This document shows, in pieces, positions 2,069 through 63,230 of a stretch of 64,000 nt of DNA. The DNA is from Bacteroidia bacterium. Lineage in GTDB: Bacteria > Bacteroidota > Bacteroidia > M30B66. Within the stretch, counting starts at the first letter, position 1. Each line of letters begins with the position of its first letter. The notes under the pieces are model-generated. The model saw nothing but the letters and a program-made list of their open reading frames with translations. It was not told the origin of the DNA and searched no databases. The stretch is from positions 2,057,302-2,121,301 of the forward strand of contig OZ257142.1 of assembly GCA_965279035.1 (NCBI GenBank). The letters are read 5' to 3'. The position numbers were made by a program, and so were the translations under genes.

Positions 2069-4726
2069 TTGAGGATGCCTAAAATTAATTTCAAAGCCTT
2101 GCTTCCCCACCTCGCGGCGGTTGCGATTTTTCTCTTACTTATCTTTTCGTATTTCCCCGAATTACTCGATAATAAGAGTCTCCGTATGGATGACGTGGAA
2201 CATCACAAAGGAATGTCCAACGAACTTGCTGATTATCGCGAAAGAACAGGCGAAGAAGCTATCTGGACCAATGCCATGTTTGGTGGAATGCCCGGTTATT
2301 TAATATCAACGGTGTATCACGGGAATTTGCTTCGTTATGCAGATAAAGTAATCAAAATGAACTTGCCTCGTCCTGCCGATTCAATGTTCGTTTTAATGCT
2401 TGGCATGTATGTTTTACTTCTCACTTTTCGAGTAAAACAACCTTTGGCAATTTTAGGTGCTGCCGTTTATTGTTTCTCTACATACAGTTTATTGAGTATG
2501 GAAGCAGGGCATATGTCGAAAATTGATGCAATGTCCTATATGCCCTGGGTTCTTGCAGGGCTTATTACAACGTTTCAAGGAAGAATTATTGTTGGAGGAT
2601 TATTAACTGCCGTTTTCTTAAGTCTCCAAATCAAGGCATCTCACTTTCAGATTACTTACTATCTGATGTTTATATTACTGTTTTTCTCAATTGTTTACCT
2701 CATTCAAAGTATTCGAGAAAAAACATTGCCCGAGTTTGCCAAAGCAGCAGGAGTTCTAGCTCTAGCGGCTGTTTTTGGTGTATTAACAAATGCTTCATCA
2801 CTCTATACAATCAACGATTATGGAAAAGATTCCATTCGTGGAAAATCAGAATTAACTTTAAAAGGTGTTGAAGAAAGCGATGGTCTCGATGCTGGTTATG
2901 CTTTACAATATAGCTATGGTGTTGGTGAAACATTCTCTTACATGATTCCCAATGTGTATGGTGGCGCATCAAATCTTGGACTAGCAGAACAAAAGACAGC
3001 TTTAAAAGAAGCGGACCCTCAATACAAACAATTTCTTGAAGGCTTTCCTCAATACTGGTCTTCTACTTCTACTACTGGTCCTTTTTACACTGGAGCCCTC
3101 ATCTGCTTTTTAGCTGTTCTCGGGTTTTTCTTTGTTAAATCACCAGTAAAATGGGCAATTCTTGCTTCAATCATTCTCGCTTTTATGCTTGCTTGGGGAA
3201 GTAATTTTGAAGATTTTTCAATTTGGATGTTAGAACATTTTCCTGGTTATAATAAGTTTCGAGCCGTCAAAATGACCTTGATTATTTCCGACTTCTTGAT
3301 ACCTCTGATTGCTATATTAGGTTTATCCGAAATCGTTTCAAATCCAGATAGAATCAAAGAAAAGAAAGTTTGGTTTTATGCAGCGTTTGGACTTACTGGT
3401 GGATTATGCTTGCTCTTTTATCTCATGCCCGATTTCTTTTTTAGTTTCGATTATCTAGACAAAAACTACGAAGGACAAATTCGTGGAATGTTGAGTCAAC
3501 AAGGAATGGATGCTGGAGCTTCTCAAACATGGATGGATGGCTTAATATCAAATTTGGAAACAGTTCGAATGGCCATTTTTAAAGCTGATGCTATCCGCTC
3601 TTTCTTCATCATTCTTCTTGGTGCAGCAACAATATTTTCGTACAGTAGAATGAAATTTAATATGTTCATTCTTGCAGCTCTTTTTCTTGTTATAACACTT
3701 GCCGATCAATGGTCAATTGATAAACGGTATGTCAACAAAAAAGATTTTGTATCCAATGCTAAATCGGCTGTTCCTTTTAGCCCTTCAGCTGCTGATGAAG
3801 CTATATTTTCTCTAGAAATTCAAAAAGACCCAACGCTTTTAGCTAAAGTTGAAAAATACAAAAACGAAGGTCTTTTGAGAGCAAAAAAAGCTGGTGGTTT
3901 AGGAGCCGATGATGCGAAATATCGTTTCCGTGGATTACTTGCTAATACCGATTACCGCGTATTAAACTTAGCAGCCAATACATTCAACGATGCAGGAACA
4001 TCATTTTTTCATAAATCGGTTGGAGGATATAGCGCAGTAAAACTTGAACGATATCAAGAATTTATTGAATACCATATCGCGAATAATATTGAATCATTAA
4101 AAAAGGTATTTCAAACTCGTCCAACAGATTCAAGTATTGCAGCAGTTCTTAGTCATTTGTATGCTTTTAATATGCTTAATACGCGGTATATTATTTACAA
4201 CGAACAAGCGCCACCTATTGTCAATAATTCAGCATTAGGAAATGCTTGGTTTGTCAATAATGTGAAAGAAGTTGCTTCTGCCAATGAAGAAATTCTTGCT
4301 TTAGATAGCACGTTTAATCCAGCCAGTACAGCTATTGTTGATAAACGTTTTCATGATCAAATTGCGAATTGGAAATCTCAACCCGATTCAACTGCTAAAA
4401 TTCATCTCGATAGTTATGAGCCCAACGATTTGAAATATTCTTGTTCAGCGGCTTCAGAACAATTAGTTGTTTTTTCTGAGATCTATTATGCCAAAGGCTG
4501 GAATGCCTATGTTGATGGAACACTTAGTCCTCATTTTAGAACAAACTATATCCTTCGTGGAATGAAAATTCCAGCTGGAAAACATAGCATTGAATTTCGC
4601 TTTGAACCTTCATCTTATGCTAATACTGAAAAAATTAGCATGGCAAGTTCTGGACTATTGATTCTATTCGTATTCCTTATGATTTTCCTTGAGGTTAGGA
4701 AAAAAAATGCAGCAGCTAAAGCATAA
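2069..4726 (+). CDS. Large polytopic membrane protein, YfhO-like / GT-C-like family
   Basis: 885 aa with many predicted TM helices in the N-terminal half and a large soluble C-terminal region. Sits next to asnB. Confidence 0.5.
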   Translation: MRMPKINFKALLPHLAAVAIFLLLIFSYFPELLDNKSLRMDDVEHHKGMSNELADYRERTGEEAIWTNAMFGGMPGYLISTVYHGNLLRYADKVIKMNLPRPADSMFVLMLGMYVLLLTFRVKQPLAILGAAVYCFSTYSLLSMEAGHMSKIDAMSYMPWVLAGLITTFQGRIIVGGLLTAVFLSLQIKASHFQITYYLMFILLFFSIVYLIQSIREKTLPEFAKAAGVLALAAVFGVLTNASSLYTINDYGKDSIRGKSELTLKGVEESDGLDAGYALQYSYGVGETFSYMIPNVYGGASNLGLAEQKTALKEADPQYKQFLEGFPQYWSSTSTTGPFYTGALICFLAVLGFFFVKSPVKWAILASIILAFMLAWGSNFEDFSIWMLEHFPGYNKFRAVKMTLIISDFLIPLIAILGLSEIVSNPDRIKEKKVWFYAAFGLTGGLCLLFYLMPDFFFSFDYLDKNYEGQIRGMLSQQGMDAGASQTWMDGLISNLETVRMAIFKADAIRSFFIILLGAATIFSYSRMKFNMFILAALFLVITLADQWSIDKRYVNKKDFVSNAKSAVPFSPSAADEAIFSLEIQKDPTLLAKVEKYKNEGLLRAKKAGGLGADDAKYRFRGLLANTDYRVLNLAANTFNDAGTSFFHKSVGGYSAVKLERYQEFIEYHIANNIESLKKVFQTRPTDSSIAAVLSHLYAFNMLNTRYIIYNEQAPPIVNNSALGNAWFVNNVKEVASANEEILALDSTFNPASTAIVDKRFHDQIANWKSQPDSTAKIHLDSYEPNDLKYSCSAASEQLVVFSEIYYAKGWNAYVDGTLSPHFRTNYILRGMKIPAGKHSIEFRFEPSSYANTEKISMASSGLLILFVFLMIFLEVRKKNAAAKA

Positions 4727-4729
4727 TTC

Positions 4730-6571
4730 ATGTGTGGAATTGCAGGATATTTTCAAGTAGGATCTAAACTTTCTGTTGGTCATATTAACAGAATGACAGA
4801 TGCTCAAAAACACCGCGGTCCAGATGCTGACGGTCATTTTGAACATCCTCGTTGTGGATTAGGTCATCGTCGTTTAAGTATTCTCGATCTTTCTGAAGCA
4901 GCCAATCAACCTTTTTATTCTCTTGATGGACGTTACGTAATTGCATACAATGGTGAGGTGTATAATTTCCAGGAGATTGCCGAAGAACTGAATTTTCAAC
5001 CTCGAACAAGTTCCGATACTGAAGTTATTTTAGAAGCCTATATTCGTTGGGGAACATCCTTCATTCAACGGATGAATGGAATGTTTGCCATAGCGATTTT
5101 CGATATTCAAGAGGAGCATTTATTCATGTGTCGTGATCGTATGGGAATCAAACCCATTTACTATTACTTTCAGGATGGACTCTTTATTTTTTCATCGGAA
5201 CTTAAAGGCTTACTAGCATTAAGGCCTGATATATATTTTAGTCTAGATAAAAATGCTGTTGAAGAATTCCTGCATGTAGGATACATTCCTGAGCCTTTGA
5301 GTATTTGTAATGAAGTGAAGAAATTTCCTTCAGGACATTGGGCTTCTATCAATTCATCAGGAATGGAACTTCATGAATATTGGAATATGGCTGATAAAAT
5401 TGAACCGGAGATTCTGAAAGATGAAACTATCGCCAAAGAAAAATTAAAGCAACTCATCACAAGTTCTGTTCGATATCGGATGATTAGTGATGTGCCATTT
5501 GGAACTTTTTTGAGTGGAGGAATTGATTCAAGTATTGTTACTGCTGTTGCTCAATACAATTCAGAAAAACCGATCAACACATTTTCAATCGGCTTTCGTG
5601 AGAGTAAACACAATGAATCAGAATTTGCAAGTGCTGTTGCTAAACATTTAGGAACTCGACATTTCGAATTTACAGTCACTGAACAAGATGCTATGGAAAT
5701 GCTCGATCAGATGCTTGATGCGTACGATGAGCCATTTGCTGATTCATCGGGAATTCCTACCATGTTAGTTTCTCGCTTAGCTCGACAGCATGTTAGCATG
5801 ACACTTTCGGGTGATGGAGGTGATGAATTGTTTTTAGGTTATGGTTCTTATACGTGGGCAAAACGTATGGCAAACCCAATTGTTAAAGCATTAAGATCTC
5901 CCATATTTTCATTATTAGCTTCATCTAAAAACAATAAATACCGAAGAGCTGCCGACCATTTTCAAAAGAGTAATTATCCATTGAGCCACATTTTTTCTCA
6001 AGAACTTTATTATTTCTCTGAATCTGAAATCGCACTCTTATTGGGAAAAACGAATTTCAATTCAGTTATTGTTGAATCGATTGAAGGATTAGCTCGCAAA
6101 TTAAAGCCAGAAGAGGAGCAAGCTTTTTTTGATTTACGATATTATTTAAAAGATGATTTATTGACGAAAGTAGATCGTGCTACCATGCAATATTCATTAG
6201 AAACACGAGTGCCTTTAATAGATTATCGTATTGTTGAATTTGCACTAAATCTTGATCCATCATTGAAAATAAAAAATGGAACAAGTAAATATTTACTAAA
6301 ACAAGTACTGTATGATTATGTTCCTGAAAGCTTGTTCAATCGCCCTAAATGGGGATTTAGTATTCCACTCGACAAATGGTTAAGTCGTGATTTAAACTAC
6401 TTAATTGAGCAATATACGAGTAAAGAAATGTGTGAGAAATATGGTTTAATCAACTATGAGATTCTGAATAAATATCGAATTGGATTTAAATCAGGAAGAA
6501 CCTATTATTACAATCGTCTTTGGCAAATTATTGTTCTACATAGACATCTTGAAAAATTACAGATTAATTAA
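4730..6571 (+). CDS. asnB: Asparagine synthase (glutamine-hydrolysing)
   Basis: Starts MCGIAGY with the Ntn catalytic Cys2. SGGIDSS PP-loop motif present. 613 aa. Confidence 0.9.
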   Translation: MCGIAGYFQVGSKLSVGHINRMTDAQKHRGPDADGHFEHPRCGLGHRRLSILDLSEAANQPFYSLDGRYVIAYNGEVYNFQEIAEELNFQPRTSSDTEVILEAYIRWGTSFIQRMNGMFAIAIFDIQEEHLFMCRDRMGIKPIYYYFQDGLFIFSSELKGLLALRPDIYFSLDKNAVEEFLHVGYIPEPLSICNEVKKFPSGHWASINSSGMELHEYWNMADKIEPEILKDETIAKEKLKQLITSSVRYRMISDVPFGTFLSGGIDSSIVTAVAQYNSEKPINTFSIGFRESKHNESEFASAVAKHLGTRHFEFTVTEQDAMEMLDQMLDAYDEPFADSSGIPTMLVSRLARQHVSMTLSGDGGDELFLGYGSYTWAKRMANPIVKALRSPIFSLLASSKNNKYRRAADHFQKSNYPLSHIFSQELYYFSESEIALLLGKTNFNSVIVESIEGLARKLKPEEEQAFFDLRYYLKDDLLTKVDRATMQYSLETRVPLIDYRIVEFALNLDPSLKIKNGTSKYLLKQVLYDYVPESLFNRPKWGFSIPLDKWLSRDLNYLIEQYTSKEMCEKYGLINYEILNKYRIGFKSGRTYYYNRLWQIIVLHRHLEKLQIN

Positions 6572-16600: not shown

Positions 16601-16838
16601 CTTTGGTGATGCTGGCTTCCTACAATCAAATCTACCGGGCGAAAAAATGGCTTTTGCAAAACCACGCGCCGATGCAGGATTAGGAATCGCTTTCACCATT
16701 AAGAAATGGGGACCACTAAGTCTCGAAAAGCCAATTACATTCCGTTTCGATATGCCGTTTTTCCTAAGCAGCACACCCAAAGTTTCTCCCGACTATGTGC
16801 AAATGCGCTGGCTTGTAGGAGTAAATCGAGCTTTTTAA
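13626..16838 (+). CDS. Secreted M1-family zinc metallopeptidase (aminopeptidase N-like) with large C-terminal extension
   Basis: Signal peptide present. HEVGHNWF...E gluzincin motif. 1070 aa. Confidence 0.75.
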   Translation: MRLLRLCIYFCVLTPSLLQSQNSSYDPIHPPNTYQNSDNPNYWKNRKPFPGYWQQDVQYTIKAKVDEKTDIVTATEELIYWNNSPDTLNFVYFHLYQNAFQPGSYCSALHDANDYPLVYGPYEKEKLGTVVSNLKVAGQEVKTELDNTILKVFLPQPLLPNSSVSFSMDFKTYFDYQGSIRRRMKEFGSYGSKHYDGVHWYPRMDVYDRKFGWCTDQHLGKEFYGDFGTYDVELEFSDNYVMEATGFLLNKEEVLPADLRQKLDIKNFANKPWEETPSIVTPYNPAKRKTWKFHAENVHDFAWTADPNYRIGEAQWNGIQIISLVQEPHAARWQNAADYTAKIIETYSRDFGMYVYNKMVVADARDGMEYPMLTLDGGADPNYRGLLAHEVGHNWFFGMVGNNETYRASLDEGFTQFLTVWAQEHIDGPYAFKGKFANKYVEKYTKPEEVRYARAMYGYIRDAIREDETTLNTHSDDFQGAVGHGGGYGSVYYKTASMLFNLQYVLGDTLFSNAMKNYFNEWKIAHPYFEDFRNSIIHYTHSDLNWFFDQWLETSKVIDYKVKRVKNKGDGIYSITFKRKGSMQMPIDFSVFDVDGKRYDYYIPNNWFEKKTSATHLPRWIGWGVLNPSYTAQVKIDAKLSNVVIDTSGRLADINRLDNARKLPNIVRFDSRVSNTPDWHQYEFNIRPDLWYNFYDGFKFGFHINGNYMNYKHVFDATFWLNTGLQKIKPGFDQDYSSFNPFSFKVNYTNPTDKILKGSSFNASVRYLDGLAAAQVGMRFQNRKKNTTFYSYFKSMVRPDSSDIYYLVNRSEWNPRRWNNTLNLGLDHEYSYKRGSGKMNLHMRTSGPGSDYDYSQLSMTVVNYNRLGKFNFNTRFFAQIGTGQNVAPESALFLAGANPESMMDNKFTRSVGFFPQDWNGFGNTTNHFQYGGGLNLRGYAGYLAPFQRADGKIVPVYKGNSGAAVNAELEFDRLFPIRPKFTRNWLKINTYLFGDAGFLQSNLPGEKMAFAKPRADAGLGIAFTIKKWGPLSLEKPITFRFDMPFFLSSTPKVSPDYVQMRWLVGVNRAF

Positions 16839-16899
16839 TATTTTTAAATAGATACTCATATATCGTAGCTGTTTCGTTTAAAATTCACTTATAAGAACT

Positions 16900-17590
16900 T
16901 CGCTCTTCCTTTCTTGTATCACGGCAAGAAAGAAAGACGTCGTAGACATTCATGTGAAGATTCAAATGAAAACTAAATCTCGAATTGTCTAAAGTGTTTA
17001 TTGACACTAAAATGCAAACACGAATCAAGCGCATCGGCTTTGTCTGGGCGGCGAGGCAGCGATTCGTCATTCCATAGAAAAATAAAGCAACCAGCACACT
17101 GGGCGAAAAAAGGCATTGCGCGCTGAAGCATCGTCCAGACTTGAACTTCTTTGCATGCACGCTGAGCTTGTCGAAGCGTGTGTCAAGACAAGAATTACCA
17201 CGTCGTAGACATTCATGTAAAACCTCAAAAGAAAACGAACGTTCAAATTTTCATGAATGTTTATTGACACTAAAATGCAAACACGAATCAAGCGCATCGG
17301 CAATGTCTGGACGGCGAGGCAGCGTTTCGCCATTCCTTAGAAAAATACAACTACCAGCACACTGGGCGAAAAAAGGCCTTTTGCGCGGGGAAGCATCGTC
17401 CAGACTTGAACTTCTTTGCTTCCTTTCTTTGTTTCAAGACATGAAAGGAAGACGTTGTAGACATTCATGTTAAGATCCAAATGAAAACAAGATCTCGAAT
17501 TTCCCAGAATGTTTATTGACACTAAAATGCAAACACGAATCAAGCGCGTCGGCAATGTCTGGGCGGCGAGGCAGCGTTTAACACAAATAA
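16900..17590. repeat. Tandem direct repeat, about 2.6 copies of a ~255-bp unit (units starting about 16939, 17201 and 17452)
   Basis: Direct reading shows repeated blocks cgtcgtagacattcatgt..gtgtttattgacactaaaatgcaaacacgaatcaagcgc.tcggc..tgtctgg.cggcgaggcagcg...cagcacactgggcgaaaaaaggc...gaagcatcgtccagacttgaacttctttgc. The periods are 262 and 251 bp. Confidence 0.9.
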
Positions 17591-17668
17591 GAAAATTAGA
17601 TTGGGGGCATGAACCGGGCTTTACGCGGTGCACGGCACCTTGCTTCAATCCCTTGCCCTAACGTTAAA

Positions 17669-27879: not shown

Positions 27880-27943
27880 CTAAGGCCTAAAATACCTAAA
27901 TCAAATAAAAAAAGACCAAAGAGTATGAGGCTTTTTTGGGGGG

Positions 27944-28237
<294 letters not shown>

Positions 28238-28258
28238 ATTGTATTTAAATATATCAAA

Positions 28259-28289
28259 TAAAAAAAGCCCCACGAGTGTGAGGCTTTTT
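28259..28289 (-). terminator. Rho-independent terminator downstream of tRNA-Val
   Basis: Minus-strand RNA agccucac-acuc-guggggcu followed by a U6 run. Confidence 0.6.
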
Positions 28290-28291
28290 AG

Positions 28292-28366
28292 TGGGAGCTA
28301 CTGGGTTCGAACCAGTGACCCTCTGCTTGTAAGGCAGATGCTCTGAACCAGCTGAGCTAAGCTCCC
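28292..28366 (-). tRNA. tRNA-Val (anticodon TAC)
   Basis: Sense strand gggagcttagctcagctggttcagagcatctgccttacaagcagagggtcactggttcgaacccagtagctccca. Cloverleaf with 7-bp acceptor stem and anticodon loop cuUACaa. No encoded CCA. Confidence 0.9.
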
Positions 28367-53080: not shown

Positions 53081-53758
53081 TTGGGAATGGAAAGACCAGC
53101 ATTTGGGATTTTGTTTGATTGTGATGGAACGCTTACAGATTCATTGGATCAGGCGATGTCGTCCTTTGTTTATGCATTAAGTAAATTAGGAATGGGATAT
53201 ATTTCGGAAGCAGAAATTCATCAATTATTTGGGATTTCGGCCGATAAAATATTGCTTCATTTCTGTAAGAATGATCAAGAACAAGGTGCTCGAGCATTTG
53301 AATTGTTTTTATAAAACCAGCAAGAACTTGCGAAGAAAACAAACTTGCATGATGGAATTTCTGAATTAGTAATGAAATTGTTTGACATGAATATTCCTAT
53401 GGGAATTGTTACTGGGAGACATTCGGCAGATTTAGATATTTTACTAGCACCGCATCAACTAAATCAAGCTTTTCAGGTTAAGATTTGCGATAATCAAGTG
53501 TCGAAACCCAAGCCGAATCCGGAGGGTATATTAAAGGCAAGTTCATTTCTCTCTATTCCTCCTTTTAATTTGCTTTATATTGGAGATTCTCCAGTTGATA
53601 TTCAAGCGGCAACAGCTGCAGGGATGTATTCTGTAGCTGCTATTTGGGATTCGCATACGAACGAATAAGCTTTGCTAGAAAACAATCCAACGTATGTTAT
53701 TTATCATCCAAAAGAAATGATGGATGTATTAGTTGATTTTAAACAAAAAACCGGGTAA
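53081..53758 (+). pseudogene. HAD-superfamily hydrolase (phosphoglycolate-phosphatase-like) interrupted by two in-frame TAA codons (53312-53314, 53666-53668) but no frameshift
   Basis: Motif I FDCDGTLTDS. Motif II VTGR. Motif III/IV K...GDSPVD. All three segments are in the same frame, and the last reads ALLENNPTYVIYHPKEMMDVLVDF. Confidence 0.6.
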
Positions 53759-62761: not shown

Positions 62762-62834
62762 GCCGAAGTAGCTCAGCTGGTAGAGCAGCTGATTTGTAAT
62801 CAGCTGGTCGGGGGTTCGAGTCCCTTCTTCGGCT
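62762..62834 (+). tRNA. tRNA-Thr (anticodon TGT)
   Basis: gccgaagtagctcagctggtagagcagctgatttgtaatcagctggtcgggggttcgagtcccttcttcggct. Anticodon loop uuUGUaa. Confidence 0.9.
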
Positions 62835-62876
62835 CTGTTCTTTGTAGTTATTATTTTTTATTTCTTCAAAGAGGTT

Positions 62877-62961
62877 GGGGAGATAGTCAAGCGGTCAACG
62901 ACAACAGACTGTAAATCTGTCCTCTCCGAGTTCGAAGGTTCGAATCCTTCTCTCCCCACCA
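62877..62961 (+). tRNA. tRNA-Tyr (anticodon GTA), class II with long variable arm, CCA encoded
   Basis: ggggagatagtcaagcggtc...agactgtaaatct...ggttcgaatccttctctccccacca. Confidence 0.9.
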
Positions 62962-63018
62962 AGGAAAAGAGATCAGGATGTATTGGATATCTGAATTTCA
63001 GAAAGAAAATACAAACAA

Positions 63019-63094
63019 GCGGAAGTAGCTCATTTGGTAGAGCGTCAGCCTTCCAAGCTGAGGGTAGCGAGTTCGAGCCTCGTCTTCCGCTCCA
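63019..63094 (+). tRNA. tRNA-Gly (anticodon TCC), CCA encoded
   Basis: gcggaagtagctcatttggtagagcgtcagccttccaagctgagggtagcgagttcgagcctcgtcttccgctcca. Confidence 0.9.
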
Positions 63095-63155
63095 AATCTT
63101 CTTCCCTATTTATCTGGAGTCACTAGATAAATAGGGAAGGCCTTTTCTCCTTAAA

Positions 63156-63230
63156 GCCGATGTAGCTCAGGGGTAGAGTACTTCCTTGGTAAGGAAGGGG
63201 TCACGGGTTCAAATCCCGTCATTGGCTCCA
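63156..63230 (+). tRNA. tRNA-Thr (anticodon GGT), CCA encoded
   Basis: gccgatgtagctcaggggtagagtacttccttggtaaggaaggggtcacgggttcaaatcccgtcattggctcca. Confidence 0.9.

Follow-up and report, generated by a model that had tools for sequence, protein, structure and literature searches.

Multicopy small RNAs (sRNAs) of the LhrC1-5, PrrF1/2 and AbcR1/2 type are around 100 nt long, are expressed, and have their own promoter and Rho-independent terminator. The LhrC1-5 genes are laid out as a tandem group with a dispersed copy. Another kind of intergenic repeat is represented by REP/BIME, BOX and MITEs. They are non-coding, modular, hairpin-forming and lineage-specific, they lie after gene ends, often between converging genes, and they are sometimes tandem. 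REP/BIME/BOX families have tens to hundreds of copies with modules of 35-150 nt, and MITEs are marked by terminal inverted repeats and target duplications. In Escherichia coli, LDR consists of tandem triple repeats of a few hundred bp with another copy, and it encodes a 35-aa hydrophobic toxin and an antisense RNA. Bacteroidota, to our knowledge, lack Hfq and ProQ, and we know of few sRNA families in them. LhrC of Listeria was described as a multicopy sRNA (PMC4132741).

The repeat array reported here lies in the window, the 64-kb stretch of DNA that was analyzed. An M1-family peptidase gene and a polysaccharide flippase gene converge, and 830 bp separate their stops at 16838 and 17669 (Table 1). 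Like LhrC, the array is composed of similar, apparently non-coding units placed head to tail, with a further copy elsewhere, and a conserved single-stranded stretch lies beside hairpins. Unlike LhrC, PrrF and AbcR, the units are ~260 nt in length, and neither a promoter nor a terminator was found for each unit. The array shares with REP/BIME, BOX and MITEs that it is non-coding, modular, hairpin-forming, lineage-specific and situated between converging genes. It differs from REP/BIME and MITEs in the larger unit, in the two loci known, in the absence of another copy in the 64 kb, and in the absence of inverted repeats and target duplications. The tandem repeats in an intergenic region and the copy elsewhere resemble LDR, but the array has no conserved hydrophobic small ORF; its small ORFs are basic or unconserved. 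The array is of a known kind, that is, intergenic mosaic repeats or multicopy non-coding units, yet none of the described families includes it. A general literature search found nothing relevant.

Organization of the array and its locus

The array extends from 16893 to 17600 and comprises ~2.7 head-to-tail units of ~260 bp. In the repeat search, the units start at 16937, 17200 and 17452, with periods of 263 and 252. The copies are 81-87% identical to each other by blastn; for example, 16895-17064 and 17408-17579 show 86.6% identity. A 36-nt core pattern occurs exactly three times, versus 0 in 100 shuffles. Together with two invariant preceding bases, it constitutes a 38-nt block that is identical in all three units. 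A 30-nt B block occurs twice. Tandem Repeats Finder did not detect the array because of the indels between the units. The array is the sole large direct repeat within the window, where blastn, the repeat search and nhmmer found no further copy of the unit.

Table 1. Coordinates of the array, the tail, the flanking genes and one distant tRNA gene in the window
Feature	Position	Strand	Parts or basis
M1-family peptidase gene, 1070 aa	13626-16838	+	Left neighbor; ORF, Pfam Peptidase_M1, orthologues of 79-88% identity
Unique AT-rich spacer, M1 stop to array start	16839-16892	.	Unlike the units and the spacers of relatives
Partial unit 0	16893-16936	+	Last ~12 nt of B segment and junction hairpin J01 (stem ~16901-16939)
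Unit 1, 263 nt	16937-17199	+	P1 16939-17005; core 16995-17032; A block to 17064; B 17065-17154; J12 17155-17199; repeat search, alignment, core/B patterns, folds
Unit 2, 252 nt	17200-17451	+	P1 17202-17268; core 17258-17295; B to 17419; junction hairpin J23 17419-17451; variable parts of the subtype also found at the second genomic locus
Unit 3, truncated	17452-17600	+	P1 17454-17520; core 17510-17547
Conserved single-copy tail element, extended imperfect hairpin	17603-17658	+	Synteny, identity, consensus fold, covariance model
Tail outer stem GGGCA/UGCCC	17605-17609 and 17654-17658	+	
Tail apical hairpin GGUGC-ACG-GCACC	17627-17639	+	
Polysaccharide flippase gene, Polysacc_synt/Wzx type, 490 aa	17669-19141	-	Right neighbor; ORF, Pfam, synteny in relatives
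tRNA-Val(tac)	28291-28366	-	

The first-pass annotation, made from the DNA sequence before this analysis, had reported a tandem repeat at this place, with a core conserved nearly base for base and with small inverted repeats, including a change from tcgcc to tcgtc that is compatible with a G-U pair. All of these were recovered. Its three units with a truncated third are also retained, while the array begins earlier, at ~16893, and holds ~2.7 units rather than ~2.6. The unit starts of 16939, 17201 and 17452, with periods of 262 and 251, are replaced by those given above.

Both ends of the array are truncated units. The similarity of unit 3 stops at 17579, or at ~17600 if a 10-nt deletion is allowed. 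The possibility that the conserved tail downstream is the diverged B half of unit 3 was rejected, as no significant similarity was seen in Smith-Waterman comparison against shuffles. Unit 3 is thus truly truncated, as the first-pass annotation had it, and simply abuts the tail. A MAFFT alignment that paired the tail with the B half of unit 3 was forced.

Conservation along the unit is a mosaic. By eye from the alignments, the identical 38-nt block stands beside segments of 55-72% identity. Divergence is uneven along the unit: p is 8e-11 when the junctions are included, and 0.016-0.025 for the alignable part without them.

The loci of relatives were obtained via the M1 peptidase and by two pattern scans for the tail; the nearest relative compared has ~88% identity in M1. 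In eight relatives with converging M1 and flippase genes, the spacers are 100-157 bp, and each contains the tail. A ninth locus, P0125, agrees in the size of its spacer, 100 bp. Neither the array nor any unit-like sequence is present in the relatives sharing the locus. The tail begins 13-30 nt past the M1 stop in the relatives versus 764 nt here, and therefore ~740 bp were inserted or expanded in a short spacer. The databases contain no close relative of the source genome, and at 90% identity the majority of its proteins are singletons. The flippase gene is the final gene of a glycosyltransferase/methyltransferase operon. Pfam annotation of the neighbors found no mobile-element gene near the array, and neither a recombinase nor a partition gene was found near it.

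The B segment at 17361-17384 (and 17098-17119) matches 21 of 24 bases of 16634-16657 inside the M1 gene, ~200 nt before its stop. This match has the best local score in the whole window, yet it is only marginally above shuffles. The unit core gave borderline antisense nhmmer matches (E = 0.1-1.4) to the M1 3' end of four relatives, L006, L009, L012 and L017. These are the only matches that would fit a derivation of the unit from the M1 3' end. The resemblance is either chance or a trace of the origin of the unit.

Second genomic locus and coding potential

A profile search was performed with the three minus-strand translations of the array against a library of ~15 billion proteins, via 1.84 billion cluster representatives. 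It gave one true relative, P0181 (145 aa, E = 1.8e-33). P0181 is a singleton on the same 4,200,666-bp contig as the proteins of the window, and it is encoded outside the window. It translates the unit 1.6 times, with a period of 88 aa (264 nt). Its variable parts match unit 2 and J12 (92% over 39 aa) far better than units 1 and 3, and they resemble unit 2 more than unit 2 resembles its own neighbors. Its core differs from the core in the window at 4 or more of 13 codons. To judge from this translated ORF, through which it is known, a second array of the unit family is present elsewhere in the same genome.

The array in the window is a mixture of two subtypes. Units 1 and 3 with J01 and J23 represent one, and unit 2 with J12 represents the other. 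Given such mixing, the array probably arose from exchange among family members (recombination, gene conversion or insertion), and not from one local duplication. Since the core differs at the second locus, the local identity of the core may reflect gene conversion or homogenization as much as selection.

These observations bear on a neutral origin, in which a recent local tandem duplication left a satellite-like array without function, with hairpins kept by chance or by templated repair of quasi-palindromes. The lineage-specific occurrence of the array, its truncated end units, the weak statistics of its folds and its lack of expression signals all agree with such an origin. However, a second array with the unit-2 subtype is hard to obtain from one duplication in situ, and the unevenness of the divergence is significant. 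The second locus and the mosaic of subtypes make a neutral duplication confined to this locus improbable. They speak against the satellite that the first-pass annotation had allowed for, if it is taken as purely local, and a dispersed family suits a repeat element and a multicopy sRNA family alike.

The second profile match, P0182, was rejected, since it comes from a tandem repeat of 174 nt that is unrelated to the unit and lies on a contig of eukaryotic appearance. In L019, a eukaryotic-looking contig with thrombospondin-repeat genes, 5001-6014 contains at least five perfect tandem copies of a 174-nt unit. This repeat was called as a 337-aa ORF and gave a weak false match to the array profile.

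In agreement with the earlier view that this convergent intergenic region has no convincing gene, the ORFs in the 830-bp gap have no Pfam or NCBIfam match. On the minus strand, each unit contains an ORF of 88-103 aa. The interruptions of these frames differ from unit to unit, with a stop in unit 2 and a frameshift between units 1 and 2. In the variable part, amino-acid identity (57%) is lower than nucleotide identity (72%). Besides P0181, from the same genome, no protein similar to the translations was found among the ~15 billion, and a word-indexed search of 5.8 billion sequences with a chimeric translation gave no match. By its sequence, the unit is non-coding.

A coding origin would take one of two forms. 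The array could be a decayed repeat gene on the minus strand, or a series of tandem small-protein genes, for instance a basic plus-strand ORF of 21-27 aa (MQTRIKRIG...) or an LDR-like type I toxin-antitoxin arrangement. Consistent with coding are the open minus strand in each unit, the 145 aa open in P0181 over 1.6 units with a period divisible by 3, and a plus-strand AUG in an A-rich context whose upstream start is buried in P1. On the other side are the differently broken frames, the low amino-acid identity, and the lack of any family match or any homologue outside the source genome. In addition, the minus-strand frame MRLIRV... has no start codon in unit 3, the peptides lack the hydrophobic character of type I toxins, and the changes in the small plus-strand ORF (four non-synonymous to two synonymous) look neutral. 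A coding origin is therefore considered highly improbable.

Signals for independent expression are scarce. As noted in the first-pass annotation, no exact TAnnTTTG box is present on either strand of the array. Sigma-70-like promoter matches are at the chance level (4 found versus 3.2 +/- 2.1 expected). No intrinsic terminator was found per unit, the one weak site being on the minus strand only, and no U-tract follows the junction hairpins.

Database searches did not assign the unit to any known family. In Rfam 15, searched to E = 10, the best matches have 14.6-18 bits versus gathering scores of 50-90 (E = 3-10), and in the scan of the whole window only tRNAs pass the gathering score. The tRNA/tmRNA scan of the array found nothing. 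An exact 22-mer of the core is absent from GTDB representative genomes and JGI metagenomes, and three exact core patterns are absent from IMG/VR. The former two do not include the source genome, as a tail pattern present in the window matched only other organisms there. Plasmid and phage records gave no blastn match. The inverted repeats in the array are internal hairpins; terminal inverted repeats and target-site duplications, the hallmarks of MITEs, were not found. No known protein family or MITE, a match to which would have spoken against the first-pass proposal of an ncRNA, was recognized in the unit. By the criterion of the first-pass annotation, the absence of the array from all relatives sharing the locus, the nearest at ~88% identity in M1, leans away from a conserved ncRNA. 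The earlier interpretation of the array as ncRNA or satellite is partly supported.

Predicted structure and nature of the unit family

The P1 hairpin opens every unit. Its conserved 13-bp base, GUCGUAGACAUUC/GAAUGUUUAUUGAC, includes two G-U pairs, whose minus-strand counterparts would be C-A. The 5-bp tip of P1, which surrounds a conserved A-rich loop CAAAUGAAAAC, changes in a compensatory manner: AGAUU/AAUCU, AGAUC/GAUCU and AACCU/ACGUU. In all, two variable hairpins show changes of this kind. Pairs changed on both sides number 6, versus 2.1 +/- 1.3 in shuffled and 0-2 in slid controls, as counted on three sequences with the structure derived from those sequences. The G-U pairing of P1, GUCUGGRCG/CGUCCAGAC and GGCGA/UCGYC is possible on the plus strand only. 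The RNAalifold consensus is -42.9 kcal/mol on the plus strand versus -33.9 on the minus strand, and the folding energies of single sequences show no consistent strand preference.

Among the junction hairpins, J01 (-14.8 kcal/mol, z = -4.1) and J23 (z = -3.9) stand out, and J12 does not. The folds of whole units have z-scores from -3.4 to +1.0, mostly insignificant against shuffles. Long-range helices between A and B, suggested by RNAalifold, were rejected as no better than those with shuffled partners. According to these folding predictions, the structural support for the units is local only. The structured repeat of the first-pass annotation holds for the junction hairpins, and it does not hold for whole units or for an A/B duplex.

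The main rival to the reading preferred below is a multicopy sRNA family. Each unit, or the whole array, would then produce a structured plus-strand RNA with P1, a single-stranded A/C-rich core serving as seed, and a closing hairpin. The presence of the unit at two or more loci, the compensatory changes in the P1 tip around a conserved loop, and the G-U pairs specific to the plus strand speak for it. So do the mosaic conservation, with the identical 38-nt block beside segments of 55-72% identity, and an N-to-S change in P0181, which, to judge from the codon, probably turns a G-U pair of P1 into G-C. Such a family is nevertheless rather unlikely. The units have neither a TAnnTTTG box nor an intrinsic terminator, the z-scores are mostly insignificant, and the A/B pairing equals shuffles. 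No Rfam match was obtained, the array is absent from all relatives, and at the second locus the core differs at 4 of 13 codons or more.

The three exactly identical cores, with their regular spacing of ~255-265 bp, could also be read at the DNA level, as an array of binding sites in which the 38-nt cores are recognized by a protein for partition, regulation or recombination. The hairpins are symmetric on both strands, as such sites would permit. Yet the core contains no palindromic operator-like motif and differs at the second locus. Sequences like a DnaA box or dif are absent, and recombinase and partition genes are missing nearby. The probability of such an array is considered very small. 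By eye, the defining motifs of a dif site, DnaA boxes, integron attC, a group II intron and an Mpi-type invertible promoter are absent, and these candidates were rejected.

The best reading of the array, drawn from sequence comparison and held with somewhat less than even confidence, is a dispersed non-coding repeat that is passively transcribed as a 3'UTR. It would belong to a family of ~260-bp modules, arranged head to tail in short arrays at no fewer than two sites in the genome. Each module would be composed of P1, with its 13-bp base and variable tip, a ~70-nt core, a B segment and a junction hairpin. The family may be a non-autonomous repeat behaving like BIME or MITE elements, in which selection or templated repair would preserve the hairpins. 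The array would have been inserted or expanded in an ancestral spacer of ~100 bp, directly upstream of the older 56-nt hairpin. As there are no terminal inverted repeats or target duplication, and the ends are truncated, transposition is without direct support. The size of the family in the best reading rests on two documented loci, the second known as a translated ORF. In this reading, the array is a mosaic member of a family that is genome-specific and dispersed.

Since the array is without its own promoter, its transcription would be passive, probably on the plus strand as a long 3'UTR of the M1 mRNA ending at the tail. The plus strand is preferred because the tail is constantly near the M1 stop in the relatives and because the G-U pairs work on the plus strand. 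The tail is similarly near the flippase stop, so the transcribed strand is not settled. The position of the tail suggests that it may serve the two converging transcripts in 3'-end formation, termination or stability.

A broader proposal combines the units and the tail. The units would be structured RNAs of a family not described before, or non-autonomous elements derived from such RNAs, spreading as head-to-tail arrays beside a conserved 3' hairpin of a Flavobacteriales clade, and this hairpin of 56-69 nt would perhaps be a new cis-acting RNA motif common to the M1 and flippase transcripts. We regard this proposal as doubtful, with an appreciable chance nonetheless. Expression of the units would make them a multicopy RNA family, in a Flavobacteriales lineage that has been little studied. 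If they are a repeat element, the locus shows such repeats colonizing convergent spacers beside hairpins. Neither the array nor the tail bears on a long-standing open question.

Conserved tail hairpin and minor features of the window

The 56-nt tail was found in eight distinct relatives (M1 identity 79-88%), always between the M1 and flippase stops. It is 93-96% identical to its counterparts in the relatives, versus 74-79% for the last 300 nt of M1, and its flanks are ~40-60% identical, which is roughly random. The covariance model found one copy per locus, and the exact pattern matched once per contig of the relatives. The first-pass annotation had described a GC-rich tail with a ggtgc-acg-gcacc hairpin as the end of the array. 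The hairpin is present, and the GC content is 0.51-0.53 versus 0.36-0.43 nearby. As the end of the array, the tail was misplaced: it occurs in eight relatives without the array, and the comparison indicates that it is a separate element, older than the array.

The triloop of the tail varies among ACG, GCG, ACT, AAG and AGG. The pair 17623/17645 covaries, being C-G in four sequences, A-U in two, U-G in one and U-U in one. Short and long forms of the tail are seen, set apart by an indel of 13 nt, and the tail is therefore not coding. Its fold is no more stable than shuffles (z ~0). No U-tract is present beside the stem on either strand, the downstream sequence in the relatives being at most AUUU, and the terminator search called no intrinsic terminator at the tail. 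With z ~0 and no U-tract, the tail is not a canonical terminator.

As a GC-rich hairpin that fills a convergent spacer, the tail resembles bidirectional terminators and the hairpins that stabilize 3'UTRs. It differs from terminators in the missing U-tract and the z-score, and in an identity of 93-96%, far beyond the need of a plain terminator. So high a degree of conservation suggests that the tail is recognized by its sequence. It may represent a new narrow-clade RNA or DNA motif that is absent from Rfam. It is the more solid by-product of this analysis: narrow in its clade, very strongly conserved and non-coding, it could be added to Rfam as a candidate motif.

The long form is seen in L001 (9219-9287), L008 (6277-6345), L011, L013 and L015, with the 13-nt insert CCTCCTRCGTCGTC. 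The insert and the preceding GGGGGCAUG can form a small hairpin, GGGGG-CAUG-CCUCC, with a G-U pair on the plus strand. The long form always accompanies G at the covarying position and GCTGCAAT.

In one relative, L007, the spacer is 63 bp, and a textbook bidirectional terminator replaces the tail. It is a canonical bidirectional intrinsic terminator, AAAAAAGCCGACGGG...CTCGTCGGCTTTTTTT, and lies at 4310-4372, the usual position of the tail.

Further along the window, a 46-nt direct repeat with 85% identity is present at 27897-27942 and 28250-28295. It duplicates the terminator and the 3' flank of tRNA-Val(tac), and its left copy continues into a fragment resembling the 3' half of a tRNA. Between the two copies, a small GIY-YIG-like reading frame was recognized by eye on the minus strand. 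The segment 27897-28366 looks like a small insertion at the tRNA gene.

A reading frame for a HAD-type hydrolase (MERPAFGILFDCDGTLTDS...) at 53088-53670 on the plus strand contains an in-frame TAA at ~53313. Either a pseudogene or an error in sequencing is probable. The interruption of this frame explains a gap of 814 bp among the ORFs of at least 120 aa. Four tRNA genes, Thr-tgt, Tyr-gta, Gly-tcc and Thr-ggt, are located at 62762-63230 on the plus strand.
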